From an uncultured Methylococcus sp. (lineage in GTDB: Bacteria; Pseudomonadota; Gammaproteobacteria; Methylococcales; Methylococcaceae), in NCBI GenBank assembly GCA_964386975.1, contig CAYLUS010000001.1, positions 67,630 to 131,629 on the forward strand: a stretch of 64,000 bases of DNA, read 5' to 3'. This document shows, in pieces, positions 2,914 through 53,929 of the stretch (position 1 is its first letter; each line of letters starts with the position of its first letter). Made by a program: the position numbers and the translations under genes. Below the pieces are notes generated by a model. The model did not search any database and was not told the origin of the DNA. It saw nothing but the letters and a program-made list of their open reading frames with translations.

Positions 2914-3038
2914 GGGGACAAAATAGTGGGTAAGTGAGACCCGGTGCATACCCTGCAACCCGGGCCAAAAGAGGCGCTAACGCAATCGGCTATAATAACC
3001 GATCTGCACCCTTCCAGCCCCCCATTTCCCGCCCTACT

Positions 3039-24032: not shown

Positions 24033-25349
24033 CTAAAGGCGGCCGTCGACCTCATCCGGGGCAAATAGATATTTGACATCAAAGACCACAGCCCCGGCGG
24101 CGCCAAAACTGCGCACGCGTTCAATGCCCCAGCTGCGGTAACTGTCATGCGAGACCGCCATCACCACGGCGCTGTAAGCGCCCGACGCCGGCGCCTCGAT
24201 CAGCTCCACCCCATATTCATGACGCGCTTCAGCGGGGCTGGCCCATGGGTCATGGATCTCGACCAGAGCCCCATACTCCTCCAGGGCCCGAACGATATCA
24301 ATGACGCGGGTATTTCGAAGATCCGGGCAATTTTCCTTGAAGGTGAAGCCCAGAATCAGAATCCGGGAGGGATTGAGGGCAAGTCCGCGCCGGCTCATCA
24401 ACTTGACGATCTCAGCTGCCACATAGGCGCCCATCCCGTCGTTGATCCGTCTGCCGGCCAGGATCATCTCGGGATGAATTCCGATCTCCTGCGCCTTGTG
24501 GGTCAGGTAATAGGGATCAACGCCGATGCAATGACCGCCCACCAAACCGGGCTGAAAGGGCAGGAAATTCCATTTGGTGCCGGCTGCCCGGAGAACATCC
24601 TGGGTATCGATACCCAGACGCTTGAAGACCATCGCCAGCTCGTTTATCAGGGCAATATTGACGTCACGCTGGGTGTTTTCAATGACCTTGGCTGCCTCGG
24701 CCACGCGGATACTGGGCGCCAGATGCGTGCCCGCAGTGATGATGGATCCGTACAATCGGTCGACAAACCCAGCCGCTTCGGGGGTCGATCCCGAGGTGAC
24801 CTTCTTGATGTTCGCCAAGCGGTGCCGTTTGTCTCCAGGATTGATGCGTTCGGGGCTGTAACCACAAAAGAAATGGCCTTCGGCAAAGCGCTCGCCTATT
24901 TTTTCCGTTGACGCATAACGAAGACCTGAAAGGGCCTCAAGGATCGGGACGCAGTATTCCTCCGTCGCTCCAGGATAAACGGTCGACTCGTAAATGACGG
25001 TATCACCGCTCTTGAGGACCCGTCCGATCGTCTCGGAGGCCTTCCTTAATGGCGTCAGATCGGGCCGCTTGTAGCGATCGATTGGTGTTGGCACCGTGAC
25101 AATAAAGACATCGCAGGCAGAAAGGGCCTCAGGATCATCGGTAAAGGTGAGCTGATCGGCCTGATCAAACTCCTCCGGCTGGCTCTCAAGGGTTGCGTCA
25201 TGGCCCTTGCACAACGCCTGGATGCGCTCACGGCGCACATCAAAGCCAATGGTGGGATAATGGCGACCAAACGCAAGCGCCAGTGGCAAACCGACATAGC
25301 CAAGACCAATAATCGCAAGCCGGGGCGATGCAGATCCGAAATCGTTCAT
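24033..25349 (-). CDS. nucleotide-sugar dehydrogenase, TviB/WbpO-type UDP-N-acetylhexosamine 6-dehydrogenase
   Basis: 438 aa. Rossmann IIGLGYVGLPLA and catalytic-Cys segment GLVGGHCIGVDPYYL. The length and N-terminus resemble the TviB/WbpO/VipA group rather than Ugd. Divergent from the glycan array. Confidence 0.8.
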   Translation of the reverse strand: MNDFGSASPRLAIIGLGYVGLPLALAFGRHYPTIGFDVRRERIQALCKGHDATLESQPEEFDQADQLTFTDDPEALSACDVFIVTVPTPIDRYKRPDLTPLRKASETIGRVLKSGDTVIYESTVYPGATEEYCVPILEALSGLRYASTEKIGERFAEGHFFCGYSPERINPGDKRHRLANIKKVTSGSTPEAAGFVDRLYGSIITAGTHLAPSIRVAEAAKVIENTQRDVNIALINELAMVFKRLGIDTQDVLRAAGTKWNFLPFQPGLVGGHCIGVDPYYLTHKAQEIGIHPEMILAGRRINDGMGAYVAAEIVKLMSRRGLALNPSRILILGFTFKENCPDLRNTRVIDIVRALEEYGALVEIHDPWASPAEARHEYGVELIEAPASGAYSAVVMAVSHDSYRSWGIERVRSFGAAGAVVFDVKYLFAPDEVDGRL

Positions 25350-25464
25350 CTTTATTCCTGAATAATCCTCAAGGCGGCGGCTTGGCCTCTCATCCCCACA
25401 CGTCGAACGCGGCCCGCATGGACAGTACGCCGTCTCCCGATACCAGCCCCAAGGTTACCAGAAG

Positions 25465-26820
25465 TTGACAGCGTCCCCCTCTGCGCAACCGCTTTCCCAT
25501 CCGAAAGCCCATCGCATTCGTCATTTTCTGCAACCCGCGGTCATTGCAAGCTATGGCTTCATGGCCCTTTTGTTTCCGCCGGGATTTGCGCTCCTGGTGG
25601 CCATCTCGCTGCTGGCCTGTCCCTCGATCTGGGTCGCGGAACTGCGCTCGCCCCGCAAAGGAGTCGCCACGCTCTGCCTTAGCGCCCTCATGCTGATCCT
25701 GCTGCAAACCCTCGGTCTTGACGTCCCCGCCTTCGAAACACCCCGGATGCGCTGGGAGGATTTCTTCAAATGGCTGTTGCTGTTGCTTGGATTTTTCCCG
25801 CTGGCCCGGTGGATGGGTGGCTCCCCGGAGCGCATTGGCCTCCTGCTCGGTTCCGCGCTGGCAGGATTAATCACTGGCCTCCTGATCGCCGGCAACCTCG
25901 GCAAGATCCTCGCCTTCCGGCACACCCTTCAGACGGGCTTCCAGCTTCTGGCTTCAGTCGCAGGGTTCGCCTCCGGAATGGCGATTTTGGGCCTCATCCA
26001 GTTTGCTCCGCGCCTATTCAGACAGGCCCAACCCTTAAAAGGCCGCCTGATACGGGGCGTGACCTTAGGTCTTGCGATGTACCTGTCGCTTTACATCCTG
26101 GTGGCCTCGGAGTCGAGGGGGACGTACCTGGGATTAGTTCTGGTACTGCCCTACGCTCTCTGGCAGCTCCATCGATCCAACCACCAGCTGGCGCCTCAAG
26201 CCCGGCGCCGCATGGGTTTTCTGCTTGCCGGAACCCTGATCCTCATGGGGCTTGGCGCCTATGCCAATCAAGCAGCCTTTCGACATCGGCTTGAACCCGA
26301 CCTTCGGACCCTTTCGGCGCTGATGCAGGGGCAATATCATGACCTGACGCAGGTCAATCAGACGGAGTCTTCCCTGGCCTACCGATTCCAGGCCCAAATA
26401 GCTGGCTTTCAGGCTTGGCGGGAGCGACCCTGGCTGGGCTGGGGTCCCATTTCCAGTAAGGCGCTGATCCTGAATACCGGCGATCCATCGCTTCGCCTCA
26501 GCCATTCCAGCGGAAAATGGTTATCCCATTTTCACAGCGGCTACACGGAACTGCTCGTGCGATTCGGTCTCACCGGGCTGCTTTTGCCCCTTGGCGCCGC
26601 ACTCTGGCTGAAGCGCCGGGGCCCACAACTGCAGGCGAAGGCGCCCGAGGACTTTCGGATTTTCGCCACCAGCGGCGTGCTTCTGCTCCTGATCTGGGGA
26701 ATCAGCGGCGTTTTTTCCTCGGATGATGCCCGTGCCTGCATCACCATTGTGTTCGCGGTCAATCTCTCATTGATGATTGGCGAAAAAGACACGACCACCC
26801 GGATGGCATCATCTCAATGA
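25465..26820 (+). CDS. O-antigen ligase / polymerase-like membrane protein (Wzy_C domain)
   Basis: Polytopic membrane protein with the central loop motif VASESRGTYLGLVLVL typical of Wzy_C proteins. TTG start is uncertain. Ligase versus polymerase cannot be decided from sequence. Confidence 0.6.
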   Translation: MTASPSAQPLSHPKAHRIRHFLQPAVIASYGFMALLFPPGFALLVAISLLACPSIWVAELRSPRKGVATLCLSALMLILLQTLGLDVPAFETPRMRWEDFFKWLLLLLGFFPLARWMGGSPERIGLLLGSALAGLITGLLIAGNLGKILAFRHTLQTGFQLLASVAGFASGMAILGLIQFAPRLFRQAQPLKGRLIRGVTLGLAMYLSLYILVASESRGTYLGLVLVLPYALWQLHRSNHQLAPQARRRMGFLLAGTLILMGLGAYANQAAFRHRLEPDLRTLSALMQGQYHDLTQVNQTESSLAYRFQAQIAGFQAWRERPWLGWGPISSKALILNTGDPSLRLSHSSGKWLSHFHSGYTELLVRFGLTGLLLPLGAALWLKRRGPQLQAKAPEDFRIFATSGVLLLLIWGISGVFSSDDARACITIVFAVNLSLMIGEKDTTTRMASSQ

Positions 26821-28352
26821 TCACCAAGGCCTCCAAATCAAGGCGTCAGACCTACATGGATGCCATTCTCTCCTCGGTGGTCTGGACCCTTTTGGACCGG
26901 GGCACCTCGCTGCTCAAGCATGTCTTCATTGCCTCCGCCTTGGGCCTCGGAGTCGAACTGGATGTGTTTTACATGGCGGTTGGACTCATCAGTGTCTTCG
27001 TCTTCAGCTGGTCACGGATCGCCGATGTCATTGCCGTGCCTCGACTCATTGAATTGATTCGTGAGGGCGATGAGGAGAAGACGCTTCGTTTTACCGGTGA
27101 CCTCTTCAGTCTCAGCGTCGGATTTTCGGTGCTGCTGGCCATCCTGATGACCTTGGGCTGGCCGCTGTGCGTTCAACTGGCCTGGGGCTTTGATGCGCAG
27201 CGCAAGGAACTGCTCGAACAGACGATCTACCTTGCTGAACCGCTGTTGCTGCTGTCCATTCCTCTGAGAATGCTGTACTCGTTCGCAAAGGCTTACCGGC
27301 GTTTCTCGATCAGCTACCGCAATGAATTTCTGATTTCGGTGGTCATGCTGGCTTGCATTGCGGCCTACCCCCATGCGCCTGGCGTCATGATCGGATCATT
27401 CAGCCTTGGCATGACCCTCGCGTTCATCCTGGCCATCAGCACCCTGGGCCGGGAGGTCCGACTGCTGGGCTGCCCCTGGTCATACAACGTGAGGCAACTC
27501 CTTCCTCTGGTGCCCGCTCTGGGGCTCGTCTACGCAACCCAGTACCTCTATTCCATGGTTGACCGTCAGCTGGTTTCCTTTCTACCTGAAGGGCTTGTTG
27601 GGGCCATTGCCTACGGCTGGACCATCATCAATTTTGTACCGGCGCTACTGAGACTGGATGGCCCCTTCATCACGATTTATTCGGAAGCTGCCAAGGATCC
27701 TGAAAAAAAGGCCCACAAGTTGAATCAACTGATCTCCGGTGCCATTGCCATGGGTTCAGTCATCAGCATTCTGTGTTTCGGGTTTGCCGAGGATTTTGTC
27801 GGGCTGTTTCTGGAGCGCGGGGCATTCACACGCGAGGATACCCTCAGGGTTGCTGGATGTACGAGCTTCTTCGCCTTCTCGATTCTCCCCATCGTCCTGA
27901 TTGGCCCCATCGGCAATGTCTTCCAGGTGGAAAACCGGCTGCTGCTCATCACCAAGCGGGTGCTGTTCGGCCTGTTTCTGAATGTGATCTTTGGCGTCAT
28001 CTTCCTGTTTGGCCTGAACCTCGGCGCCGAGGGGGTTGCCCTGGCCACCTCGATCAGCCAGTGGGGCATGCTGTTAAGCTCGCTTTGGTCGGTTTCCCGC
28101 CTCGGCATTCCGGTCGCCTTCAAGCGTCATACCCGCTGGCTGCTGCGAAGCCATATCGGCGGCTTCCTCGCCCTGTGGCTGGTTGAACCCCTGAAAAGCC
28201 TGGATTCGTCCTATTGGATGCTGTTTCCAGAATCCTTGAGCTTTCTTTTACTCGCCAGCCTTCCTATTTTGATCGGCCGCGGCGAGGAGAGCCGATTTGC
28301 CCGGGCGCTGGCACGCCAGTCCTTTCAACGCTTCCTACCCGGCCGCTCATGA
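26817..28352 (+). CDS. MurJ/MviN-like MOP-superfamily flippase
   Basis: About 14 predicted TM helices. The N-terminal pattern LLKHVFIASALGLGVELDVFYMAV...AVPRLIELIREGDEE parallels MurJ (ARIFGAG..TDAFFVAF...VPILAEY). The ATG overlaps the upstream stop (ATGA). Confidence 0.65.
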   Translation: MITKASKSRRQTYMDAILSSVVWTLLDRGTSLLKHVFIASALGLGVELDVFYMAVGLISVFVFSWSRIADVIAVPRLIELIREGDEEKTLRFTGDLFSLSVGFSVLLAILMTLGWPLCVQLAWGFDAQRKELLEQTIYLAEPLLLLSIPLRMLYSFAKAYRRFSISYRNEFLISVVMLACIAAYPHAPGVMIGSFSLGMTLAFILAISTLGREVRLLGCPWSYNVRQLLPLVPALGLVYATQYLYSMVDRQLVSFLPEGLVGAIAYGWTIINFVPALLRLDGPFITIYSEAAKDPEKKAHKLNQLISGAIAMGSVISILCFGFAEDFVGLFLERGAFTREDTLRVAGCTSFFAFSILPIVLIGPIGNVFQVENRLLLITKRVLFGLFLNVIFGVIFLFGLNLGAEGVALATSISQWGMLLSSLWSVSRLGIPVAFKRHTRWLLRSHIGGFLALWLVEPLKSLDSSYWMLFPESLSFLLLASLPILIGRGEESRFARALARQSFQRFLPGRS

Positions 28353-29278
28353 CCCAGCCCGTCATTACCGTCATCACACCCACCTACAACCGAGCACCCC
28401 TGCTGCCCAGGGTATGGGACTCCCTCAAGCGGCAGACCGAGGCGCGCTTCGAGTGGATCATTGTCGACGATGGCTCCACGGATGCGACCCGATCGCTGGT
28501 GGCGTCTTTTGACGATCCGAGGATCCTCTATGTCCATCAACCGAATCGCGGGCAGAATGCGGCGCGGCAGCATGGCGAAACGTTCATGCGCAGTGATTAC
28601 GCGGTGTTTCTGGACAGTGATGATGAGCTCTTTGATGGGGAAACCCTGCGGATGATGCTCGACGTCATTCGTGAAACCCCTGAGGATATTGGCGTGGCGG
28701 CTTTTCAGGTGGTGACCCCCAATGGCGGAGCCGGCGCGTCGGATTTTGCCGAAGACCGCATGGTCCTGGGTTATGAGGATCTGGTCTGTGAATGCAAGGC
28801 CAGAGGCGAAGCCTTCAGGATCTTCAAGAAAAAAGCGCTGCTTTTTCATCCTTGGTGGGTAGAAGGGCCGGGTCTCCTTAACATTCGCTACTATGGCATT
28901 GCCACTCGCTTTAACTACCTTTACGTCGCCCGTCCCGCGCTGATCTATCACACCAATCATGGCGACAACCTGACCGGACCCGGCGCCTATATCCGGAGAT
29001 CCGGTGCCATGACCGAAGGTTTGAAGCTGCTGATCCGAGACCATGGCGACTGCATGCGGAAAGCCTGTCACCCGATTCTGGGTGCAAAGCTGTATGACGC
29101 AGCCATGAATTCGGCCATGGCCGGCAGGTCGCTGGATGCGGCCCGTTTTGCAATTCGCTCAATGCGCGAAAAAGGTCCCATTGCCAACAACAGCCGCCTG
29201 CTGCTGATCCTGCTGCTGCCGCTTGCCCTTCGACACCGGTTGTTTATCTGGCGTTCTCATCGGAGCGGCATTCGATGA
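28349..29278 (+). CDS. glycosyltransferase family 2 (copy A)
   Basis: ITVITPTYNR, VDDGSTDAT and LDSDDEL (DxD) motifs. Start at MTQPV (28349) overlaps the flippase stop (ATGA). The ORF-track start at 28214 lies inside the flippase gene. Confidence 0.85.
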   Translation: MTQPVITVITPTYNRAPLLPRVWDSLKRQTEARFEWIIVDDGSTDATRSLVASFDDPRILYVHQPNRGQNAARQHGETFMRSDYAVFLDSDDELFDGETLRMMLDVIRETPEDIGVAAFQVVTPNGGAGASDFAEDRMVLGYEDLVCECKARGEAFRIFKKKALLFHPWWVEGPGLLNIRYYGIATRFNYLYVARPALIYHTNHGDNLTGPGAYIRRSGAMTEGLKLLIRDHGDCMRKACHPILGAKLYDAAMNSAMAGRSLDAARFAIRSMREKGPIANNSRLLLILLLPLALRHRLFIWRSHRSGIR

Positions 29279-30219
29279 ACCGAGAACCCAACAGTGCCAC
29301 CCCTGAAATGAACCCGAGCAACAACTCGCCTGCCCGCATGATTCCAAGACCCAACTTCTTCATTGTGGGCGCACCCAAATGTGGCACCAGCTCTCTTGCG
29401 CATTGGCTGGGCAGCCATCGCCAGATCTTCTTTGCACCCGGCAAGGAGCCGCATTTCTTCAACACCGACGAGCATCGGAGCTACACGGTACTGAAGGACT
29501 ATGAGGCGCTCTTCCAGCCTGCTGGGCCTGAACATCGGGCGCTGGGTGAGGCCTCCACCTGGTATTTGTATTCAAAAACGGCCATTGCCAACATCGAGGC
29601 GTACAACCCGAAGGCACGCTATATCGTCTGCCTCAGAAATCCGATCGAAATGGCCCCCTCCCTGCATGAGCAGAAGGTATTTCTGGGATATGAAAACGAA
29701 CCCCGTTTTGCAAAAGCCTGGGCCCTGAACGCGGAGCGGGCCAGAGGCCGGGCAAAGAGCATCTGGTGCAAGAATCCGCGGCATCTGGACTATGGTAGTG
29801 CCTGCAAAATCGGCGAGCAGCTGGCGGCGCTGCTCCGCATCGTGCCACGCGAGCGGGTCATGACACTCCTGCTCGAGGACATGAAGCAGGATCCGGGCAA
29901 AGCGTATCGGGACACGCTTGCATTTCTTGGGCTCGAGGACGATGGTAAGACCGATTTTGATGTCATCAATCCTGCCAAAGAGAGAAAATCCAAGCTGGTT
30001 CATTACTCCATGCAGTCGCTGATCCGCCTGAAAGAACTGCTCGGACTCCGAAAAAGCTTAGGAATACTGACGGGCTTCGACCGTTGGAATGTGAAATTCC
30101 GTGACCGCGCACCCATCGATCCAGAGCTCCGACGCACGCTCCAGGCGCATTTCAGGGAAGATATCCAGACGCTCTCAGCGCTTCTGGATCGCGATCTCTC
30201 ACACTGGCTTACGCCTTGA
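29275..30219 (+). CDS. PAPS-dependent sulfotransferase family protein
   Basis: 5'-phosphosulfate-binding loop FFIVGAPKCGTSSL and 3'-phosphate-binding motif CLRNPIEMAPSLH. The ATG overlaps the GT2-A stop (ATGA). Confidence 0.8.
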   Translation: MNREPNSATPEMNPSNNSPARMIPRPNFFIVGAPKCGTSSLAHWLGSHRQIFFAPGKEPHFFNTDEHRSYTVLKDYEALFQPAGPEHRALGEASTWYLYSKTAIANIEAYNPKARYIVCLRNPIEMAPSLHEQKVFLGYENEPRFAKAWALNAERARGRAKSIWCKNPRHLDYGSACKIGEQLAALLRIVPRERVMTLLLEDMKQDPGKAYRDTLAFLGLEDDGKTDFDVINPAKERKSKLVHYSMQSLIRLKELLGLRKSLGILTGFDRWNVKFRDRAPIDPELRRTLQAHFREDIQTLSALLDRDLSHWLTP

Positions 30220-30265
30220 TGATGCTTAACACTCATTCGCCTTGCATGACATACCGACGTAGCTG

Positions 30266-30895
30266 ATGTCCTCGACCAATCCCAACATCATTCCCCATGT
30301 TCCCTTGATCAGCCGCGAGGACCGTGAGGCCCGCCAAGGCCACCGGGCCGCCGTTCTCTGGTTCACCGGCTACTCAGGTGCTGGGAAATCCACCTTGGCG
30401 CACGCTCTGGATGCGGCCATCCATGCAGAGGGCATTCATTCCTATGTCCTTGATGGTGATAATGTGCGGCACGGCCTGTGTTCTGACCTCGGATTCAGCC
30501 TGGAACACCGCTCCGAGAACATCCGCCGCATCGGGGAAACCGCGAAACTCTTCATGGACGCCGGCCTGATCGTCCTGACCGCGTTCATTTCGCCACTTCG
30601 GGCCGACCGGGACCGGGTCAGATCGCTGTTTAGGCCGGGAGACTTTCTGGAAATCTACTGCGAGGCCAGCCTTGAGGTCTGCGAGGAGCGCGATGTCAAA
30701 GGTCTCTATGACCGGGCACGAAAAGGACTGATCAAGGACTTTACCGGGATCTCCTCACCCTACGAGCCGCCACTGCATCCGGATTTGGTGATCAAGACCG
30801 GCGAGCGCGACCTCGGCGCATGCGTCAAGGAAACGCTTGATTTTCTGGTGATGCGCCAGATCCTTGGACCGGTGAACGACCCCAAGGCCCGATGA
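30266..30895 (+). CDS. cysC: adenylylsulfate (APS) kinase
   Basis: 209 aa. P-loop FTGYSGAGKSTLA, LDGDNVRHGLCSDLGFS, and FISPLRADR motifs. Confidence 0.9.
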   Translation: MSSTNPNIIPHVPLISREDREARQGHRAAVLWFTGYSGAGKSTLAHALDAAIHAEGIHSYVLDGDNVRHGLCSDLGFSLEHRSENIRRIGETAKLFMDAGLIVLTAFISPLRADRDRVRSLFRPGDFLEIYCEASLEVCEERDVKGLYDRARKGLIKDFTGISSPYEPPLHPDLVIKTGERDLGACVKETLDFLVMRQILGPVNDPKAR

Positions 30896-31818
30896 GCCCC
30901 ATCCTCAGCATCGTCACCCCCAGCTTCAATCGCGCCACACTGCTTCCCAGAACCTGGCGCTCGATTGCTTGCCAGAGTGAAGCGCGGTTCGAATGGATCG
31001 TGGTGGATGACGGATCCGACGATGCGACCCCCGAGGTCGTTCAGGGATTTTCCGATCCAAGAATCCGGTTGATTCGCCAGAGCAACCTCGGCTGCAACGC
31101 TGCACGCATGCGGGGGGAAAAAGAGAGCACGGCGCCCTTTGTGCTTTTTCTGGACAGTGATGACGAGCTGTATGAACCCGAAACGCTCAAGCAGATGCTC
31201 GATACCCTGAAAGCGGCACCGCCAGGGGTTGGGGTTGTCGCCTTCACGGCCCTCACACCGGAAGGGGGATCAGGCGCCTCCCGCCTGCAAAGCCCCGAGA
31301 TGATCCTGCGCTATGAGGATCTCCTTTTTGGGCAGAAGGTCCAAGGCGAGATATTGAGACTGTTTCGGCGGGAAGCGCTTCTGGGAACGCATTTCCAGAC
31401 CGACATCCCCGGCTGGGAGGCCCTCCGCTACTTCGAGATTGCCCGACGTTTCCAATTCCTGATAGTCGACCGGCCCGGCCTGATCTATCACATGAACCAT
31501 GGAGACAACCTGACCAGCGCCCGGGCGACCCTTCAACGGGCCCCTGGAATGACCAAGGGCTATGCCCTTCTTTTTAATACTCACGGCGACGGACTGGCAA
31601 AAGCGCCTGCCAGAGTCTTAGGCACGCACCTGTTTCATGCGGCCCTGAACTGCGCCATGGCCAATCAAAAGCAAGAAGCCCTTCGCTACAGTTTCGACGC
31701 ACTCCGGCACCAAGGCCCAAGAGCCCAGGTTTTCGCGCTCTTGGCCAGCCTTTTTCTTCCTGAGGCTTTCAGACATTGGCTATTCATCCAGCGATCGAAG
31801 GCCCGGGGAGTCCTGTGA
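30892..31818 (+). CDS. glycosyltransferase family 2 (copy B, paralog of 28349-29278)
   Basis: SIVTPSFNR, VDDGSDDAT and LDSDDEL motifs. Collinear over its full length with copy A. The ATG overlaps the cysC stop (ATGA). Confidence 0.85.
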   Translation: MSPILSIVTPSFNRATLLPRTWRSIACQSEARFEWIVVDDGSDDATPEVVQGFSDPRIRLIRQSNLGCNAARMRGEKESTAPFVLFLDSDDELYEPETLKQMLDTLKAAPPGVGVVAFTALTPEGGSGASRLQSPEMILRYEDLLFGQKVQGEILRLFRREALLGTHFQTDIPGWEALRYFEIARRFQFLIVDRPGLIYHMNHGDNLTSARATLQRAPGMTKGYALLFNTHGDGLAKAPARVLGTHLFHAALNCAMANQKQEALRYSFDALRHQGPRAQVFALLASLFLPEAFRHWLFIQRSKARGVL

Positions 31819-32954
31819 CCCCTCGCCGTCTCCTCATTATTTCCAGCGGTCTCCCAACAGGAGGTGCTGAGCTCCGCTTGCTTAGCCTGCTGGAAACGCT
31901 GGACCGTGGGCAATTCGAGCCCTGTGTTCTGAGCCTTTTGGATGCGGGCGACATTGGACCTCGCATCCGGCAACTGGGCATCGCGGTCGAAACGCTGAAT
32001 CTTGGGGGCATAGCCAGTCTGCCTCGGGCTATCCTCACGCTGGTGTGCCTGCTAAGGGGCTTTCGACCCGAGCTGATTCAAGGCTGGATGTACCATGCCA
32101 ACCTCGTTGCGCTGATGGCAGGATTGATCACCCGGGGCTCCTGCCCGGTTTTCTTTGGCATTCGCAACGCGCTGGGCAACTGGGATCAGGAAAAAACCGC
32201 AACCCGCCGGGTAATCCGATTGAATGCCTATTTCTCCCGATTTGCCGCAAACGTGATCTTTCCCGGCAAGGCCTGCGCCGAACAGCACTGGGCGCTCGGT
32301 TTTTCAAAGGCCAACAGCCGCCTGATCGAAAACGGCATCGATTGCCAGCGATTTCAGCCCGACCCGGAGGACCGCTGTGCCATTCGAAGCGAATTGGGTC
32401 TTGAACCTTCGGACCTGGTGATTGGTTTTGTCGCTCGCTTTCATCCCGTCAAGGACCACGCCAGTTTTCTGTCGGCTGCAGCCCGGGTGGCCGTCACCCA
32501 CCCGAACGCCCGATGGCTGCTCTGCGGTCCCGACATTGACCACCAAAACAGCCATCTGGTTGATCTCATCGATCAAGCAGGCCTTCGCGACAGCGCCCTC
32601 CTTCTGGGAAACCGCAAAGACATGCCTCGCATCTACCGGGCCCTTGATTTACTGGCTCTGACCTCCATCAGCGAAGCCTCGCCAGGGGCCGTTGCCGAAG
32701 CCATGGCGTGCGGAATTCCCTGCCTTGCAACCGAGGTCGGCGGCTGCCCGGAAACCCTGGGTGACACGGGCTGGCTGGTACCGCCCGGAAACCCGGATGC
32801 CATCGCCGAGGGTCTCAACACCGCACTTGCTGGGGGACGGGAACAACTCGAGCGCGAAGGCGCTCGCGCTCGCGGCCGGGCCCTTGACGCGTTCGACCTC
32901 CATTCCATGACGCACCGCTATGAGGATCTGTGGCAATCACACCTCAAGGTCTGA
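31815..32954 (+). CDS. glycosyltransferase family 4 (GT-B fold)
   Basis: N-terminal LLIISSGLPTGGAE and C-terminal E-x7-E region SEASPGAVAEAMACGIPCLATEVGG. A GTG start at 31815 overlaps the GT2-B stop (GTGA). The ORF-track ATG at 31776 is an alternative. Confidence 0.8.
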   Translation: MTPRRLLIISSGLPTGGAELRLLSLLETLDRGQFEPCVLSLLDAGDIGPRIRQLGIAVETLNLGGIASLPRAILTLVCLLRGFRPELIQGWMYHANLVALMAGLITRGSCPVFFGIRNALGNWDQEKTATRRVIRLNAYFSRFAANVIFPGKACAEQHWALGFSKANSRLIENGIDCQRFQPDPEDRCAIRSELGLEPSDLVIGFVARFHPVKDHASFLSAAARVAVTHPNARWLLCGPDIDHQNSHLVDLIDQAGLRDSALLLGNRKDMPRIYRALDLLALTSISEASPGAVAEAMACGIPCLATEVGGCPETLGDTGWLVPPGNPDAIAEGLNTALAGGREQLEREGARARGRALDAFDLHSMTHRYEDLWQSHLKV

Positions 32955-33061
32955 TGCCGAAAAAAATGGGACAATGCGCTTGTGATCCTGACGTGCAGGG
33001 CCCTGCCGGTCCTTCCGACCCGTCCGATCCGTTCTAACTGACCTGGAGAGCCAACCGCCTC

Positions 33062-35065
33062 ATGTGTGGATTTACCGGATTTCTTGACCGAACCGCCCGG
33101 GAACTGCCCGAGGCATTGGAGGAAACCGTCAGACGGATGAACCAAACCCTCTTGCATCGGGGACCTGATGATCAGGGAATCTGGACGGATGCATCGCAGG
33201 GGATTGCCTTGGCACACCGCCGCCTCTCGATCCTGGATCTCAGCCCGGAGGGTCACCAGCCCATGATGTCGCGGAGCTCCCGCTATGTCATTGCATTCAA
33301 TGGGGAGATCTATAACCACCTTGAATTGCGAGCCACGCTGGACACCGAGGGAACATCACCCCTCGTGCACCCCCTGGCCGACGAGGCGGCCAGAGCACCG
33401 GTGCACGGCGCCTGGCGGGGCCGCTCCGATACCGAGACGCTGCTGGCAGCGATTGATGCCTGGGGTATTGGCGAAACCCTCAAGCGGAGCGTGGGCATGT
33501 TTGCCTTCGCCCTCTGGGATCGGCATGATCACCTCCTTTATCTGGCCCGCGACCGTCTGGGCGAGAAACCCCTCTATTATGGCTGGCAGGGCGATTGCCT
33601 GCTGTTCGGCTCCGAACTCAAGGCTCTAAGACAACATCCGGCGTTTCAGGGGCAACTGGATCGGGGCGCGATGACCCTGCAGATGCGCCACGGATATGTG
33701 CCAACCCCGTACTCAATCTACCAGGGGATCCACAAACTTCCGCCCGGCACGTTCGTGGCACTTGGAGGCCATCGTCCGCAGGCTCAGCCGGTCACCTACT
33801 GGTCGGCATTGGATACGGCCTTGAAGGGGCAGATGCAACCCTTCCAGGGTTCCGATCAGGAGGCCGTCGACGCCCTTGATTCGATGCTTCGAAGGGCTGT
33901 TTCAGGACAGATGGTGGCCGATGTCCCGCTGGGGGCCTTTCTCTCGGGCGGCATTGATTCCAGCACGATTGTCGCCCTGATGCAGGCCCAGTCTGCGCAA
34001 CCGGTCAAAACCTTCACCATCGGCTTTAACGAAGCGCAGTACAACGAGGCAACCCATGCCAAGGCGGTTGCCGCGCATTTGGGCACCGACCACACTGAAC
34101 TGTATGTGACGCCTGAAGAGGCCATGGCGGTCATTCCGGATCTCCCTGCACTCTATGACGAACCGTTTGCCGATTCTTCTCAGATTCCCACGTTCCTGGT
34201 GGCAAAGTTGGCTCGGCAGAACGTCACTGTCAGCCTCTCGGGAGACGGCGGGGATGAACTTTTTGGCGGCTACAACCGGTATTTTTGGACCACTCAGTTC
34301 TGGCGCAAGATGCGACGGGTGCCCAAGGGGCTTCGCTCCAGCATCGCTGGCCTTCTGACGGTGATCCCCCCTCACCTTTGGGATGGTCTGTTCAGAACAT
34401 TCGGCTTTGCCCTGCCAGCCGCCCTTCGCTATGCCTCTCCCGGTGACAAGCTCCATAAGCTCTCGAGCTTTCTCGGCGCCAGCAATCCTGAAGCCATCTA
34501 CCTTGATCTTGTCTCTCTCTGGAAAGACCCGCGCCGCTTGAGCCTTGGAACCCCGGAGCCCGCCACGCTCCTTAATGATCCCCATCAATGGCCGGAACTT
34601 CGGGAATTCGAGCACCGCATGATGTATCTCGATACCGTCAGCTACCTGCCTGATGACATCCTCACCAAAGTCGACCGTGCGGCGATGGGCGTTAGCCTTG
34701 AAACCCGAGTACCGCTGCTGGATCACCGCGTGGTTGAACTTGCCTGGCAACTGCCACTGGCGATGAAAATCCGTAATGGGCAGGGTAAGTGGGCCTTAAG
34801 ACAAGTCCTGAACCGCTATGTCCCCGAAGCCCTGACCGAGCGTCCAAAAATGGGATTTGGTGTGCCGCTGGACCAGTGGCTCAGGGGCCCTTTGAAACCG
34901 TGGGCTGAGGCGCTGATCGACAAGCAGCGCCTCAAGTCCGAGGGCTTTCTCAATCCCAATCTGGTCAGGGATCGCTGGAATCAGCACCAGTCAGGGCGTC
35001 ATAACTGGTCCTCTCTTCTGTGGAACGTTCTCATGTTCGAGGCATGGCTCGACAGGTCGCGCTGA
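33062..35065 (+). CDS. asparagine synthase (glutamine-hydrolysing) homolog, WbpS-like glycan amidotransferase candidate
   Basis: 667 aa. N-terminal nucleophile MCGF, Ntn glutaminase domain, and PP-loop FLSGGIDSSTIVALM. Its location inside a glycan locus suggests sugar amidation rather than Asn synthesis. Confidence 0.85.
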   Translation: MCGFTGFLDRTARELPEALEETVRRMNQTLLHRGPDDQGIWTDASQGIALAHRRLSILDLSPEGHQPMMSRSSRYVIAFNGEIYNHLELRATLDTEGTSPLVHPLADEAARAPVHGAWRGRSDTETLLAAIDAWGIGETLKRSVGMFAFALWDRHDHLLYLARDRLGEKPLYYGWQGDCLLFGSELKALRQHPAFQGQLDRGAMTLQMRHGYVPTPYSIYQGIHKLPPGTFVALGGHRPQAQPVTYWSALDTALKGQMQPFQGSDQEAVDALDSMLRRAVSGQMVADVPLGAFLSGGIDSSTIVALMQAQSAQPVKTFTIGFNEAQYNEATHAKAVAAHLGTDHTELYVTPEEAMAVIPDLPALYDEPFADSSQIPTFLVAKLARQNVTVSLSGDGGDELFGGYNRYFWTTQFWRKMRRVPKGLRSSIAGLLTVIPPHLWDGLFRTFGFALPAALRYASPGDKLHKLSSFLGASNPEAIYLDLVSLWKDPRRLSLGTPEPATLLNDPHQWPELREFEHRMMYLDTVSYLPDDILTKVDRAAMGVSLETRVPLLDHRVVELAWQLPLAMKIRNGQGKWALRQVLNRYVPEALTERPKMGFGVPLDQWLRGPLKPWAEALIDKQRLKSEGFLNPNLVRDRWNQHQSGRHNWSSLLWNVLMFEAWLDRSR

Positions 35066-35080
35066 TCCTGAGATTACGCC

Positions 35081-36253
35081 ATGGCGATGACTTCCCCTCC
35101 TCCAAAGCTCCTTTTTTTCGTGACGGAAGACTGGTACTTTTGCTCGCATCGACTGCCGCTGGCAGAGGCCGCAAAGGCCAGAGGCTTCGAAGTCGCTCTG
35201 GTCACGCGCGTTCAGGCGCATGGCGATGCCATTGAAGCCGCCGGCATCCGCCTGATTCCAATCCCGCTTTCACGCGGCGGACGCAACCCGATGACCGAGT
35301 GGCTTACGGTCTGGCGCCTGATGCGCATCCTCCGGCACGAGACACCCGACCTCCTTCACAACGTAGCCCTGAAGCCCGTGCTCTATGGCAGCCTTGCCGC
35401 TCGACTCAGCCGGACCCGTGGCGTCATCAATGCATTGGCTGGGCTTGGTCATATCTTTGCCCTCGAAACCCGGGCCGGACTTCTAAGGCGGCTGGTTACC
35501 CTGGCATTTCGATGGCTTCTTAAAGGGCACGGTGCCGTCATCGTCCAGAATCCCGATGACCGCCAACTGCTGCTTGCATCGGGGGCCGTTCGGGCGGAGG
35601 ACGTCACCCTCATTCGGGGTTCCGGTGTTGATCTGACGCGTTTCCAACCCTCCCCGGAGACCGAAGGGCCGGCGCTGGTCCTGTTTGCCGCTCGTCTTCT
35701 CTGGGACAAGGGCATTGGTGAATTTGTAGCAGCGGCAGGTCCTTTGAAGGCGCAATTTCCCGGAACCCGCTTTGTCATCGTCGGTGAGCCTGACCCCGAA
35801 AATCACTCATCGCTGGCCCTCTCCCAACTCGAACAATGGCAACGCGAGGGGACAATCGAATACTGGGGAAAACGCCATGACATGGATGCGGTTTTTCGGG
35901 AATGCCATCTTGTCTGTCTGCCGTCCTATTACGGTGAGGGCGTACCCAAGGTGCTGCTCGAAGCCTGTGCCGCGGGCCGACCTATCGTGACCACCGACAT
36001 GCCCGGCTGCCGGGAGGTCGTTACCAGCGGGGACAATGGCCTACTGGTTCCCCCAAGAGATGTATCGCGCCTGATTGATGCCCTGAGCGAGCTGCTCAGC
36101 AACCCGGCGCTTCGGCACCAGATGGGTGCCCGGGGTCGTGCACGAGCAGTGGCCGAATTTGGAGTCGAGCGTGTCATCGATCAAACCCTGAGCCTTTACC
36201 AGAGCCTTCTGGAGCAACGCCGCCCCAAGGCGCCTGAGCATCAAACGTCATGA
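35081..36253 (+). CDS. glycosyltransferase family 4 (GT-B fold)
   Basis: KLLFFVTEDWYFCSHRLPLA N-terminus and GEGVPKVLLEACAAGRPIVTTDMPG (E-x7-E). Confidence 0.8.
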   Translation: MAMTSPPPKLLFFVTEDWYFCSHRLPLAEAAKARGFEVALVTRVQAHGDAIEAAGIRLIPIPLSRGGRNPMTEWLTVWRLMRILRHETPDLLHNVALKPVLYGSLAARLSRTRGVINALAGLGHIFALETRAGLLRRLVTLAFRWLLKGHGAVIVQNPDDRQLLLASGAVRAEDVTLIRGSGVDLTRFQPSPETEGPALVLFAARLLWDKGIGEFVAAAGPLKAQFPGTRFVIVGEPDPENHSSLALSQLEQWQREGTIEYWGKRHDMDAVFRECHLVCLPSYYGEGVPKVLLEACAAGRPIVTTDMPGCREVVTSGDNGLLVPPRDVSRLIDALSELLSNPALRHQMGARGRARAVAEFGVERVIDQTLSLYQSLLEQRRPKAPEHQTS

Positions 36254-36882
36254 TTCAACCAATGAACGCGTCCGACGAATTCGAATGTCTTGCCGAACAA
36301 CTGGTTCTCGCCGGTCGCCTGATCGACCAAAAGGGCTGGGTACCTGCGACCAGCGGCAACTTTTCAGCCCGACTGGCGGATGGTCGGGTTGCCATTACCG
36401 TCTCAGGACGACATAAGGGCCGTTTAACCCCGGACGACATCATGCTGGTGGATGCAGATGGACAATCGCTTGACGGCAGAACCTCCTCCGCCGAGACACG
36501 CCTGCACACGCGACTTTACCAACGCTACCCGGACATTCGCGCCGTCCTTCACCCGCATTCTCCGGGATCGACCTTGATCTCAAGACGCTTCAAGGGCAGC
36601 CTCGCGCTCTCGGGCTATGAACTGTTAAAGGCCCTTCCGGGAATCACGACCCATATGTCCCAGGTGACAGTCCCGATCTTCCCGAACGATCAGGATATCG
36701 GGCGACTGGCAGAGGGGGTGGATGTCTGGCTTGAAGCGCATCCCAAGACCCCGGGGTACATCATTGAGAGCCACGGGTTTTACACCTGGGGTGATTCTGT
36801 AGAGTCGGCGCTTCGCCATGTCGAAGCGCTGGAGTTTCTGTTCGACATCGAATTCCGTTTAAATGGGAATCCAACGCCATGA
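36250..36882 (+). CDS. mtnB: methylthioribulose-1-phosphate dehydratase (class II aldolase fold)
   Basis: WVPATSGNFSARL and LHPHS motifs. The ATG overlaps the upstream GT4 stop (ATGA). Followed by mtnD and mtnC. Confidence 0.85.
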   Translation: MIQPMNASDEFECLAEQLVLAGRLIDQKGWVPATSGNFSARLADGRVAITVSGRHKGRLTPDDIMLVDADGQSLDGRTSSAETRLHTRLYQRYPDIRAVLHPHSPGSTLISRRFKGSLALSGYELLKALPGITTHMSQVTVPIFPNDQDIGRLAEGVDVWLEAHPKTPGYIIESHGFYTWGDSVESALRHVEALEFLFDIEFRLNGNPTP

Positions 36883-37439
36883 GTATTTTGACCATTCATG
36901 AGGCTGCAAGGCCTGCGCAGTTCGAACGCATTGACGACCCCGCCGTGATCGCCGCTCGCCTTGGCGAGATCGATGTCCTTTTCGAACGCTGGAACACCAA
37001 ACTCGAGATTGGCGCCTCGCACACTCAGGCGGAGATCATCGAGGCTTACCGCTCCTCCGTGGACCGGCTGATGGACCGCTATGAATTTCAGTCCGTTGAC
37101 GTCGTCAGTCTCACCCCTGAGCACCCCGACCGGGACGCGCTTCGCGCGAAATTTCTGAGCGAGCATACGCACGCCGAATTCGAAGTCCGTTTCTTCATCA
37201 GGGGTCAAGGCCTTTTCTTCCTGCATGAGAAGGATCGGGTTTTTGTGGTCCTGTGCGAACAGGGCGACCTGATCAGCGTGCCTTCGGGCATGCGGCATTG
37301 GTTCGACATGGGACCCCATCCAGACTTTCAATGCATCCGCTTCTTCACCAACCCCGAAGGCTGGGTTGCCCAATACTCGGGCGATGCCATTGCCGATCGG
37401 TTCCCCCCCTTCGAGCAGTATCTTCGAGCAGTCTCATGA
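36879..37439 (+). CDS. mtnD: acireductone dioxygenase (ARD)
   Basis: Cupin motif EHTHAEFEVRFFIRGQGLFFLH...GDLISVPSGMRHWF. Confidence 0.88.
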   Translation: MSILTIHEAARPAQFERIDDPAVIAARLGEIDVLFERWNTKLEIGASHTQAEIIEAYRSSVDRLMDRYEFQSVDVVSLTPEHPDRDALRAKFLSEHTHAEFEVRFFIRGQGLFFLHEKDRVFVVLCEQGDLISVPSGMRHWFDMGPHPDFQCIRFFTNPEGWVAQYSGDAIADRFPPFEQYLRAVS

Positions 37440-50649: not shown

Positions 50650-50697
50650 TTCGATCACTCCGATTCGAGACCCCAAAACCAAGGGGCTAAAACGCAA

Positions 50698-53881: not shown

Positions 53882-53929
53882 CCCGTTCCACGCCAAAATC
53901 GCCACCCCACTTTAATGGAGTCACCCCTC

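Follow-up and report, generated by a model that had tools for sequence, protein, structure and literature searches.

A probably sulfate-decorated surface-sugar operon pairing a sulfotransferase with a stand-alone APS kinase in a relative of Methylococcus

The region from 28349 to 31818 of the window, as we call the whole 64,000-nucleotide stretch that was analysed, carries four genes on the forward strand in the order GT2a (28349..29278), a PAPS-type sulfotransferase (ST, 29275..30219), the stand-alone APS kinase CysC (30266..30895) and GT2b (30892..31818). A preliminary description had named these four open reading frames at the same positions, and both their coordinates and their identities hold, each with Pfam support; every Pfam domain assignment reported here lies above the Pfam threshold. 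Its placement of the genes in a surface-glycan operon is likewise confirmed, as they belong to a locus of 10 genes (24033-36253) that also encodes a Wzy_C protein, a MurJ-like flippase, two family-4 glycosyltransferases next to the two of family 2, an AsnB-like amidotransferase and a divergent TviB-like dehydrogenase. The ATGA overlaps that it had reported are present at 28349 (flippase stop and GT2a start), 29275 and 30892 (CysC stop and GT2b start), and a GTGA overlap at 31815 joins GT2b to the next gene, GT4a. MurJ-GT2a-ST and CysC-GT2b-GT4a are two overlap-linked runs, with a gap of 46 nt between ST and cysC, and no terminator-like sites were found in the intergenic gaps of the operon. A further ATGA overlap (36250-36253) connects the stop of GT4b to the start of mtnB. 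We regard this region as a genuine but fairly ordinary surface-sugar-chain operon whose product is probably decorated with sulfate.

The divergent gene (24033..25349, reverse strand) encodes a TviB/WbpO-like nucleotide-sugar 6-dehydrogenase with three UDPG_MGDP_dh Pfam domains. It scores 560.6 bits against the NCBIfam TviB model, just below the cut-off of 592, and 370 bits against the NDP-sugar dehydrogenase model TIGR03026 (cut-off 190), and its product is probably a UDP-HexNAc uronic acid. The remaining genes lie on the forward strand. A polytopic membrane protein (25465..26820, start codon uncertain; Pfam Wzy_C, 69 bits) may act as O-antigen ligase or as polymerase, and has no sequence match among solved structures. 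The MurJ/MOP-family flippase (26817..28352; Pfam MurJ, 80.2 bits) reaches only 60 bits with the true-MurJ equivalog model, far under its cut-off of 235 bits, and a Wzx-like role is assigned to it. Downstream of GT2b, GT4a (31815..32954) is a family-4 (GT-B, retaining) glycosyltransferase with Glycos_transf_1 and Glyco_transf_4 domains and a TIGR03088 score of 149 bits, under the cut-off of 409. It is followed by the AsnB-like glutamine-dependent amidotransferase (33062..35065; Asn_synthase, 412 bits, with GATase_6 and GATase_7), which scores above the cut-off for TIGR01536 (474 bits) and below that for TIGR03108, the XrtA/PEP-CTERM amidotransferase (584 versus 817 bits); it would amidate the carboxylate of the uronic acid. 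The last glycan gene encodes a second family-4 glycosyltransferase, GT4b (35081..36253; Glycos_transf_1, 116 bits; Glyco_trans_4_2, 69.8 bits). Among the large ORFs of the window, we found no priming phosphoglycosyltransferase, Wzz or export genes at the locus.

Pfam assigns ST to Sulfotransfer_1 (44.3 bits, cut-off 22) and Sulfotransfer_3 (38.1 bits), and the translation contains both PAPS-binding motifs noted previously (GAPKCGTSSL and CLRNPIEMAPS). Across 16 homologues, the 5'-PSB residues K35/G37/T38, the 3'-PB residues R121/N122/P123 and the pair K57-E58 are invariant; in the alignment with heparan-sulfate NST, this Lys-Glu pair falls in the catalytic region. The protein is predicted to be soluble, with no transmembrane segment. 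Its first 21 residues form a poorly conserved extension of low model confidence, and a GGAG 9 nt upstream of the ATG supports the start at 29275. A profile search of the PDB returned 3rnl as the best match (E = 2e−47), followed by NDST and 3-OST, and a Foldseek search with the AF2 model (pLDDT 88.4) again placed 3rnl on top, ahead of 3-OST and NDST entries. The best neighbours of known function are 3-OST-1/3/5 and NDST1 (E ~1e−10, TM 0.6-0.73), so that ST has a heparan-sulfate 3-OST/NST-like fold. ST has homologues in at least 590 GTDB species. We surveyed the 113 nearest-neighbour ORFs of homologues from 57 other species in many phyla and found mostly Wzx-type flippases and glycosyltransferases: 19 Polysacc_synt flippases, 17 GT4, 6 GT2, 4 MurJ-like proteins, 4 additional sulfotransferases and 2 Wzy_C proteins. 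Given this breadth and these neighbours, we take ST to be a common glycan sulfotransferase and not a rarity. Sulfated bacterial glycans had been called uncommon, but sulfotransferases of this kind are not, as far as genomes show. The suggestion that this locus makes a sulfated glycan is strengthened by the folds and neighbourhoods described above.

CysC, which converts APS and ATP to PAPS, scores 216 bits against Pfam APS_kinase and is above cut-off for two NCBIfam models (NF003013, 284 bits, cut-off 163; TIGR00455, 249 bits); its P-loop GYSGAGKST and the motif LDGDNVRHGL are present in the translation. None of the large ORFs in the 64-kb window encodes cysD or cysN, in agreement with the earlier remark that ATP sulfurylase is missing locally, and the same set contains no cysH, cysQ or sulfate permease. 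It had also been stated that glycan sulfation typically relies on an extra PAPS supply. As a local arrangement this is not typical: outside the Methylococcus-like clade, cysC was found within 10 kb at only 6 of 78 ST loci.

The chromosomal site, between a CNNM gene and mtnBDC, is common to related lineages, and we observed three variants of the locus there, all of which keep cysC. Among relatives named Methylococcus sp., the site holds either MurJ-ST-CysC-GT2-ST2 or a layout with CysC and no ST. One group of relatives conserves ST-CysC-GT2 and lacks the upstream GT2; another has MurJ-GT2 and lacks ST. The dehydrogenase has a counterpart of 65% identity in the L089 variant but none in the L001 variant, and the AsnB-like protein is conserved at 65-67% in all variants and GT4b at 61-63% in relatives. 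GT2b is syntenic with the sole GT2 downstream of cysC in L001-type relatives, which have no gene at the position of GT2a, a lineage-specific extra copy. With one GT2 more than its relatives, the lineage of the window probably builds a longer unit.

We consider it likely that the four genes form the modification core of a flippase-dependent, sulfated surface-glycan operon; the best reading of the sequence is a sulfated, probably uronamide-containing O-unit or EPS assembled on undecaprenyl-pyrophosphate (Und-PP). The analysis itself establishes what the genes are, their motifs, the fold of ST, operon coupling, synteny, the neighbourhoods across the family, and the age of the GT2 paralogues with the selection on them; which substrate is used, in what order the steps run, whether the product bears a sulfate ester and what finally accepts it are inferred. 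In a gammaproteobacterium related to Methylococcus, this Wzx-type operon would assemble an oligosaccharide unit on Und-PP at the cytoplasmic face of the inner membrane, using GT2a, GT2b, GT4a and GT4b and a priming transferase presumably encoded elsewhere. The TviB-like dehydrogenase would probably supply a HexNAc-uronic acid, which the AsnB-like enzyme would then probably amidate. The cytoplasm is the only compartment that contains PAPS. Here soluble ST would O-sulfate a sugar of the lipid-linked unit, while co-translated CysC would boost local PAPS, drawing on APS from an ATP sulfurylase whose genes would lie elsewhere. The MurJ-like MOP flippase would flip the completed unit, and the Wzy_C protein would either ligate it to an acceptor or polymerise it.

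It is also conceivable that CysC is simply the general, possibly sole, APS kinase of the organism, serving assimilatory sulfate reduction with a PAPS-type CysH and merely resident here, so that only ST is specific to sulfation. Consistent with this, cysC is retained in L089 and L091, where sulfotransferases are missing within 10 kb, suggesting that cysC may serve beyond ST. At 57-67%, it is conserved to about the same degree as the housekeeping genes on the flanks, neither cysQ nor cysDN lies beside it in the window, and among 80 metagenomic loci with cysC only 3 showed an ST-like ORF, as judged with few ST families. However, cysC begins 46 nt after ST within the operon and runs at its stop into the start of GT2b; in L089 a GT4 and the sugar dehydrogenase share its orientation; and genes for nucleotide sugars and polysaccharides make up most of the nearest neighbours of 35 metagenomic cysC homologues, with only 2 of 68 of the PAPS_reduct type. 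Further, stand-alone cysC adjoins sulfotransferase-containing polysaccharide loci in the cultured relatives Methylosarcina fibrata and Sulfuricystis thermophila. In addition, where a bacterium has a reductase of the APS type, its APS kinase is there for sulfation alone, as established for M. tuberculosis (PMC4373884). We therefore consider a purely general CysC unlikely. Far less probable still is that ST acts on something other than a glycan, such as a small metabolite, lipid or peptide, with its operon position incidental. The Sulfotransfer_1/3 families do include small-molecule and lipid enzymes, the ST family appears to have no characterised member (3rnl is a structural-genomics entry), and sulfotransferase genes associated with methanobactin, whose sulfation would be of this type, are known from methanotroph genomes (PMC3621798). 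Yet the ST gene lies between two glycosyltransferase genes and in translational coupling with its surroundings, its nearest folds of known function are all glycosaminoglycan sulfotransferases, with SULTs, PKS sulfotransferases and TPSTs ranking much worse in the structure search, its homologues adjoin flippases and glycosyltransferases across many phyla, and the 64-kb window holds no natural-product genes.

Two GT2 genes (GT-A, inverting; Glycos_transf_2, 105.5 bits for GT2a and 95.6 bits for GT2b) flank ST and cysC. An identity of 40-50% had been estimated by eye, and alignment gives 147 of 305 residues (48%) without gaps, far above chance (E = 1e−104); GT2a retains its VDDGS and DSDDEL motifs. 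The DNA similarity reported with it stands for short in-register segments (70-77%) and not for the genes as a whole, which are 55% identical overall and 37% at third positions. The preliminary description had offered insertion of ST-cysC into a duplicated GT as one explanation. The collinear, gap-free copies, their in-register DNA repeats at 2540-nt spacing and their place in one GT2 sub-clade specific to this locus type would fit a recent local tandem duplication split in this way, but as a recent event it is refuted: synonymous sites are saturated and dS is not computable; the copies differ from each other as much as each does from the GT2s of lineages that have a single copy (48-53%; GT2b against L001/L007, 50-52%); and they are not sisters in an NJ tree, where GT2a groups with GT2s of other lineages to the exclusion of GT2b, though with only 64% bootstrap support. 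The same 48% gap already exists in L088, an 82%-related lineage whose orthologues are 87% (GT2a, dN/dS 0.05) and 71% (GT2b, dN/dS 0.09) identical to those of the window, and between the two lineages GT2a, GT2b, ST and CysC are all under purifying selection (dN/dS 0.05-0.09, dS ~1.5-2.2). A recent duplication is therefore almost certainly wrong. Rather we propose that the two are ancient, functionally distinct paralogues forming two different linkages, possibly after an old duplication. Whether the unit is polymerised turns on the Wzy_C protein, which might instead move one short sulfated oligosaccharide en bloc, to lipid A-core if WaaL-type (as in LOS or a one-unit O-antigen) or to proteins if a PglL/PilO-type O-oligosaccharyltransferase. 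It is the lone Wzy_C protein at a locus without Wzz, Wza or Wzc, it diverges fast among the variants together with the glycosyltransferases, as expected of a glycan-recognising enzyme, and it carries HSGYTELLVRFGLTG, a match to H[NSQ]x9Gxx[GTY] conserved in orthologues that are only ~35% identical overall, which we take to be the motif of WaaL ligases and PilO/PglL. However, the Wzy_C domain occurs in true polymerases too, no PglL-specific domain appears in the Pfam results, the protein does not match solved WaaL structures in sequence, and Wzy or Wzz could be encoded beyond the window. Transfer of a single unit is possible, though we lean against it.

The closest solved relative of ST, 3rnl from Alicyclobacillus acidocaldarius, aligns over the full length at 28% identity and superposes on the model with TM 0.69/0.87 and an rmsd of 2.1 Å. 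Neither a substrate nor a function is known for this protein, and none can therefore be carried over to ST. The animal heparan-sulfate 3-OSTs and the NDST sulfotransferase domain share with ST the fold, the 5'-PSB and 3'-PB motifs and the Lys-Glu at the catalytic Glu region, although sequence identity is only 15-20%. Those enzymes act on finished polymer in the Golgi lumen, whereas ST is soluble and cytoplasmic and presumably acts on a lipid-linked oligosaccharide.

Pairing a carbohydrate sulfotransferase with a dedicated supply of activated sulfate is the logic of rhizobial NodH with NodPQ (PMC11625862 for NodH) and of mycobacterial CysNC with Stf (PMC4373884). The locus studied here would follow the same logic, although NodPQ combines ATP sulfurylase with APS kinase and only the kinase is present here, and the substrates differ: lipo-chitooligosaccharides or trehalose lipids for NodH/Stf, and Und-PP-linked repeat units as proposed here. 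Sulfated capsules have been chemically proven in Vibrio sp. KMM 8419 and Cobetia marina KMM 1449, where sulfotransferase and PAPS-synthesis genes likewise lie among glycosyltransferase and transport genes (PMC11641403, PMC11766843). Our product is predicted from its genes, and we found no paper with chemical evidence of glycan sulfate in this organism or any Methylococcus relative. Both of those clusters have a full second cysD/cysN/cysC set, with cysQ and a sulfate permease added in Cobetia, as opposed to cysC only; they export through an ABC transporter (Kps) and not through a MOP flippase and Wzy_C protein; and their hosts are marine, whereas in our case MAGs named Methylococcus sp. are the nearest relatives. 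The synechan (xss) cluster of Synechocystis PCC 6803 is of the Wzx/Wzy type, with two sulfotransferases among eight glycosyltransferases. As described in the accessible part of that report, xss differs from our locus in being plasmid-borne, regulated by XssQRS and equipped with a PCP component, and no PAPS-supply gene is listed there among the xss genes. In the scheme proposed there for its synthesis, sulfation of the lipid-linked unit precedes flipping (PMC8205485), the order that we propose for ST and the MurJ-like flippase.

Four collinear genes on the forward strand of the window encode a family-2 glycosyltransferase (GT2a, 28349-29278; Glycos_transf_2, PF00535, 105.5 bits), a PAPS-type sulfotransferase (ST, 29275-30219; Sulfotransfer_1, PF00685, 44.3 bits against a cut-off of 22, and Sulfotransfer_3, PF13469, 38.1 bits against a cut-off of 27), the APS kinase CysC (30266-30895; APS_kinase, PF01583, 216 bits) and a paralogous family-2 glycosyltransferase (GT2b, 30892-31818; Glycos_transf_2, 95.6 bits). 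A preliminary description, made from the sequence by eye, had read them as a sulfation cassette bracketed by two GT2 genes inside a surface-glycan operon; the six-frame ORF list and Pfam assignment agree with its coordinates and gene identities, and every motif that it cited is found in the translations. The start/stop overlaps that it reported are likewise present as ATGA at 28349 (junction of a MurJ-like flippase gene with GT2a), 29275 (GT2a with ST) and 30892 (CysC with GT2b). A GTGA at 31815 joins GT2b to a following family-4 glycosyltransferase gene (GT4a), and a gap of 46 nt separates ST from cysC. The ST start at 29275 is supported by a GGAG 9 nt upstream of its ATG; the N-terminal 21 residues are poorly conserved and were modelled with low confidence.

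The ST protein contains a 5'-phosphosulfate-binding loop (PKxGT[TS]; GAPKCGTSS, residues 32-40) and a 3'-phosphate-binding motif (RNPxxxxxS; LRNPIEMAPS, residues 120-129). In an alignment of 16 homologues with 47-82% identity, residues K35, G37, T38, R121, N122 and P123 are invariant, as is the Lys57-Glu58 pair of the sequence KEPHFF, whose KEPH segment aligns with EEIQFF of the heparan-sulfate NST domain. A profile built from this alignment gave 15 matches in the PDB, the best of which was 3rnl, an uncharacterised Alicyclobacillus sulfotransferase (E = 2e-47), followed by heparan-sulfate N-sulfotransferase domains and 3-O-sulfotransferases and, as the last, the polyketide-synthase sulfotransferase domain 4gox. 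When the AlphaFold2 model of ST (pLDDT 88.4, pTM 0.85) was searched against the PDB with Foldseek, 3rnl was again the top match, ahead of about 20 chains of 3-OST and NDST enzymes. The 3-OST (3-OST-1/3/5) and NDST1 chains matched with E values near 1e-10 (range 1e-7 to 5e-11) and TM scores near 0.6-0.7, polyketide-synthase, small-molecule and tyrosyl-protein sulfotransferases scored far more weakly, and the best 50 matches listed were all PAP(S)-binding sulfotransferase-fold proteins. With carbohydrate sulfotransferases as its closest characterised relatives and a conserved acidic residue as putative catalytic base after the first strand-loop-helix, ST groups with the heparan-sulfate 3-OST/NST-like enzymes. 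No hydrophobic segment was predicted in ST, so we take the protein to be cytoplasmic.

Homologues of ST number 3918 database proteins at E ≤ 1e-3, and the representative genomes of GTDB species contain at least 590 loci, spanning the Proteobacteria, Chloroflexota, Acidobacteriota, Actinomycetota, Cyanobacteria, Bacteroidota and others; the rarity put forward in the preliminary description was therefore overstated at the level of genes. We surveyed the nearest ORF on each side of ST homologues in 57 GTDB species and scanned the resulting 113 ORFs against Pfam. The neighbours included Polysacc_synt (Wzx-type) flippases (19), GT4 (17) and GT2 (6) glycosyltransferases and, more rarely, MurJ-like proteins (4), further sulfotransferases (4) and Wzy_C proteins (2), and no metabolic or natural-product theme was apparent among the 113. 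These counts are the strongest available evidence that the family may act in sulfating lipid-linked glycan units, and they also show the window ST to be a typical member. We know of no characterised member of this family. A triad of GT4, AsnB and GT4 genes like that at 31815-36253 in the window recurs near ST homologues at seven loci in unrelated Proteobacteria (Burkholderiales, Rhodobacter, Halomonas and Sulfuricystis), and triad and sulfotransferase may form a mobile functional module.

CysC is a canonical stand-alone enzyme, with NCBIfam scores above the cut-offs (NF003013, 284 bits against a cut-off of 163; TIGR00455, 249 against 139), and its translation is that of a full-length adenylyl-sulfate kinase with the P-loop GYSGAGKST and LDGDNVRHGL. 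Methylotrophs, nitrifiers and sulfur oxidisers carry hundreds of homologues at 60-68% identity. Two cultured organisms were sampled for the context of cysC: in Methylosarcina fibrata, CysQ-like and CysC genes adjoin a polysaccharide locus whose products include a flippase, a Sulfotransfer_4 protein and a GT2, and in Sulfuricystis thermophila the gene order is rml genes, CysC, Wzx, Sulfotransfer_1, GT4 genes and AsnB. Among 68 nearest-neighbour ORFs from the 35 longest of 80 metagenomic cysC loci, nucleotide-sugar and polysaccharide genes predominate, with 6 carbamoyltransferases, 6 ManC-type nucleotidyltransferases, 5 GDP-mannose dehydratases, 4 Polysacc_synt_2 proteins and 4 CysQ-like proteins; PAPS_reduct-type neighbours made up just 2 of the 68. 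Stand-alone cysC genes often reside in glycan loci. The commonest genes adjacent to stand-alone cysC in this metagenomic set, namely NodU/CmcH-type carbamoyltransferases (6) and members of the GDP-mannose pathway (5-6), hint at other glycan loci whose products are both sulfated and carbamoylated. An ST-like ORF was detectable at 3 of the 80 loci, a lower bound since detection used four query families only. Conversely, only 6 of the 78 ST loci from beyond the Methylococcus-like clade have a cysC within 10 kb, and together with the sampled cysC contexts this makes a local cysC a minority but recurrent feature of sulfotransferase-bearing glycan loci.

According to Pfam and NCBIfam annotation, the cassette forms the middle of a ten-gene glycan locus. 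A TviB/WbpO-like nucleotide-sugar 6-dehydrogenase gene (24033-25349, reverse strand; TviB 560.6 bits, slightly below the cut-off of 592) is transcribed divergently from the forward-strand genes for a Wzy_C membrane protein (25465-26820) and a MurJ/MOP-type flippase (26817-28352), which scores far below the true-MurJ cut-off and so probably has a Wzx-like role. Downstream of the cassette follow GT4a (31815-32954), an AsnB-like glutamine amidotransferase (33062-35065) and a second family-4 glycosyltransferase (GT4b, 35081-36253), all on the forward strand. ST and cysC thus have glycosyltransferase genes on either side and a flippase and a Wzy_C gene upstream of them, the kind of placement by which sulfated-polysaccharide clusters are recognised (PMC11641403). 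The local PAPS pathway is only partial, consisting of cysC without cysDN or cysQ: among the large ORFs of the 64-kb window we found no cysD or cysN, in agreement with the preliminary description, and no cysH, cysQ or sulfate permease. A priming phosphoglycosyltransferase, Wzz, Wza and Wzc were likewise absent from these ORFs. The Wzy_C protein carries HSGYTELLVRFGLTG, which fits the pattern H[NSQ]x9Gxx[GTY], presumably the ligase/O-oligosaccharyltransferase-type motif of WaaL, PilO and PglL, and the pattern is kept in orthologues at just ~35% identity. The motif points, though not decisively, to an enzyme of the ligase type and to a glycan that is short and not polymerised; a comparison of the protein with solved structures for assignment as ligase or polymerase gave no match.

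The large ORFs outside the locus are housekeeping genes, including thrA-like, SMC, zipA, ligA, clpB, GT9 heptosyltransferase, dus, purH, speD, prlC, CNNM-family, mtnBDC, L,D-transpeptidase, suf operon, prfB, lysS, PQQ dehydrogenase, SoxYZ fusion and RND efflux genes. GC content and skew show no anomaly across 24-37 kb, no tRNA gene was found in the window and no repeats were found flanking the locus; the locus thus bears no sign of being a recent island, and horizontal acquisition as an island was rejected on these grounds. We also rejected a PEP-CTERM/XrtA exosortase-associated EPS locus, as the equivalog scores for the stp glycosyltransferase (TIGR03088, 149 and 98 bits) and the XrtA-system amidotransferase (TIGR03108, 584 bits) lie well under their cut-offs of 409 and 817, and no exosortase was found among the window ORFs. 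A promoter scan returned fewer promoter-like matches than the shuffle expectation, and every terminator-like match falls within a gene. At the downstream end of the locus the GT4b stop overlaps the mtnB start (ATGA at 36250-36253), so mtnB, mtnD and mtnC (36250-38110) look co-transcribed with the glycan operon; in two relatives (loci L001 and L004) GT4b and mtnB are separated by ~130-145 nt.

Elsewhere in the window, a single ORF (53915-54739) encodes a fusion of SoxY and SoxZ domains and immediately follows a gene for a metallo-beta-lactamase-fold protein (52958-53881), and no other sox genes were noticed nearby. A 620-aa PQQ-dependent dehydrogenase with an XoxF/MxaF-like beta-propeller (50779-52641, reverse strand) is consistent with a methylotrophic host; after it comes a 297-aa ORF that matches no Pfam family (49804-50697, reverse strand). 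The sequence CTTTGAC at 47252-47258, at the start of the RF2 gene prfB (47229-48278), is the classical site of programmed +1 frameshifting, which makes the GTG start listed for prfB an ORF-calling artefact. A stand-alone MEKHLA-domain protein of 174 aa (9767-10291; 148.5 bits) adjoins clpB.

Comparison with other genomes revealed several variants of the locus. One metagenome contig (L087) is 99.3% identical to window positions 28957-33873 (4.9 kb); at its positions 2820-3997 (4.8x coverage) GT4a is broken into two frames by a 1-nt indel, to be explained by an error of assembly or else by natural inactivation/phase variation of this glycosyltransferase. A more distant metagenomic relative (L088) has the same order of GT2a, ST, CysC, GT2b and GT4, with an ST 82% identical to that of the window. 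The best matches in the genome collection, GTDB MAGs named Methylococcus sp., show identities of 60-64% for ST, ~70% for PrlC and 94% for SpeD, and carry their loci at exactly the same chromosomal site, between the CNNM-family gene and mtnBDC, in two other layouts. The first of these, represented by L001, reads Wzy_C-MurJ-ST-CysC-GT2-ST2-GT4-AsnB-GT4 and lacks the upstream GT2 and the dehydrogenase. Its second sulfotransferase (ST2; 12501-13451 in L001, and also in L004 and L007) lies directly after GT2, is unrelated to the first at just 24-26% identity and has no counterpart in the window, which suggests that the number of sulfate groups differs by lineage. The other layout, represented by L089, consists of Wzy_C, then CysC-GT4-dehydrogenase on the opposite strand, then MurJ-GT2-GT4-AsnB-GT4. 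In L089 (3956-15267) and L091, cysC is thus retained, on the opposite strand and co-oriented with a GT4 and a sugar dehydrogenase, and no sulfotransferase lies within 10 kb; either another part of those genomes encodes the sulfotransferase or cysC serves a different purpose there. Across the variants AsnB, GT4b, CysC, ST and the dehydrogenase are 57-67% conserved, about as much as the flanking housekeeping genes, while Wzy_C (~35%), GT4a (45-49%) and the GT2 proteins (48-53%) diverge fast, an unevenness typical of serotype-determining loci.

The products of the two GT2 genes are 48% identical over 305 residues without gaps (E = 1e-104), within the 40-50% first estimated by eye; the similar DNA also described is confined to short in-register stretches of 70-77%, against 55% overall and 37% at third positions. 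Both copies have aligned and intact VDDGS (nucleotide-binding) and DSDDEL (DxD) motifs of inverting family-2 GT-A enzymes, and in the PDB they come closest to GalT1 and the chondroitin synthase K4CP domain. The preliminary description had suggested, as one of two readings, that the cassette was inserted into a duplicated GT2. The two copies resemble each other no more than either resembles the GT2 that other lineages have as a single copy (48-53%), and several single-copy homologues in the database share more identity with GT2a (51-58%) than GT2b does. In a neighbour-joining tree with 100 bootstraps, GT2a of the window pairs with that of L088, and GT2b with its L088 counterpart, each at 100% support, and GT2a and GT2b are not sisters in a star-like topology whose deep nodes have 13-64% support. 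The dS between the two copies is saturated, and L088 already shows 48% identity between its own GT2a and GT2b. The non-sister placement, the saturated dS and the third-position identity reject a recent tandem duplication or gene conversion, and with the gap already present in L088 a duplication split by the cassette is wrong as a recent event. Between the window and L088, dN/dS is 0.05 for GT2a, 0.08 for ST, 0.08 for CysC, 0.09 for GT2b and 0.13 for GT4a, so that all five genes are under strong purifying selection. Together with the intact DDGS and DxD motifs, this indicates that both GT2 copies are functional, long-retained and non-redundant.

This leaves two explanations of the GT2a-ST-CysC-GT2b arrangement, namely a duplication of old date and a mosaic assembled from two variants of the locus. 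GT2b lies after cysC and before a GT4, like the GT2 of the L001 type, and the GT2a start overlaps the MurJ stop; this synteny, along with identity differences of 2-3 points, hints that GT2b is the counterpart of the L001-type GT2 and GT2a that of the L089 type. We tentatively put forward, as a possibility that we ourselves hold to be rather doubtful, that the site between the CNNM-family gene and mtnBDC is a serotype-like recombining glycan locus in the Methylococcus-related group, with cysC as core, the numbers of sulfotransferases (0, 1 or 2) and GT2 genes (1 or 2) varying, surface sulfation variable as a result, and the window arrangement a mosaic of two ancestral layouts. Sulfation-gated chain extension, with GT2b needing the sulfated acceptor made by GT2a and ST, is a further possibility.

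We propose that, after a priming enzyme encoded elsewhere, the inverting GT2 pair and the retaining GT4 pair would build a lipid-linked unit in the cytoplasm. One residue would probably be a HexNAc-uronic acid made by the TviB-like dehydrogenase and amidated by the AsnB-like enzyme, a proposal that draws on the WbpS- and WbtH-type amidotransferases found in O-antigen loci containing GalNAcAN. Soluble ST would then sulfate the unit with PAPS supplied by CysC, before flipping since PAPS is cytoplasmic; the MOP flippase would export the sulfated unit and the Wzy_C protein would ligate or polymerise it. The analysis itself establishes the identities of the genes, their motifs and operon coupling, the fold of ST, the synteny of the locus, the context of the ST family and the selection on the genes, and we infer the substrate of ST, the order of steps, the presence of sulfate and the final acceptor. 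A sulfated glycan is the likely product, so this part of the earlier interpretation stands, shorn of the recent duplication and of rarity at the gene level.

The literature on sulfated glycans is dominated by cyanobacteria, rhizobia and marine heterotrophs, and a search for reports of sulfated glycans in Methylococcus and its relatives, and of how Methylococcus assimilates sulfate, found nothing relevant. If sulfate is present, no earlier sulfated surface glycan from a methanotroph lineage would, as far as the literature found goes, have been described, and sulfated bacterial glycans would reach methanotroph-related gammaproteobacteria. With the ST family present in at least 590 GTDB species, and mainly beside flippases and glycosyltransferases in those surveyed, bacterial glycan sulfation is probably much commoner than the chemistry literature suggests. 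The main interest lies in this large, uncharacterised family of flippase-adjacent glycan sulfotransferases and in a naturally variable locus: characterising one tractable member would provide annotation for thousands of genes, and the variants with 0, 1 and 2 sulfotransferases offer a natural comparison for finding which sugar is sulfated.

Clusters of sulfotransferase and PAPS genes underlie the chemically proven sulfated capsules of Vibrio sp. KMM 8419 and Cobetia marina KMM 1449, and this gene combination has been termed a hallmark of sulfated polysaccharide synthesis (PMC11641403, PMC11766843). The synechan xss cluster is a Wzx/Wzy system with two sulfotransferases (PMC8205485). The window locus shares the logic of these clusters but differs from them in having cysC alone, in its MOP-flippase and Wzy_C export signature and in its host lineage. 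We regard it as a well-behaved example of a known cluster type rather than a new mechanism.
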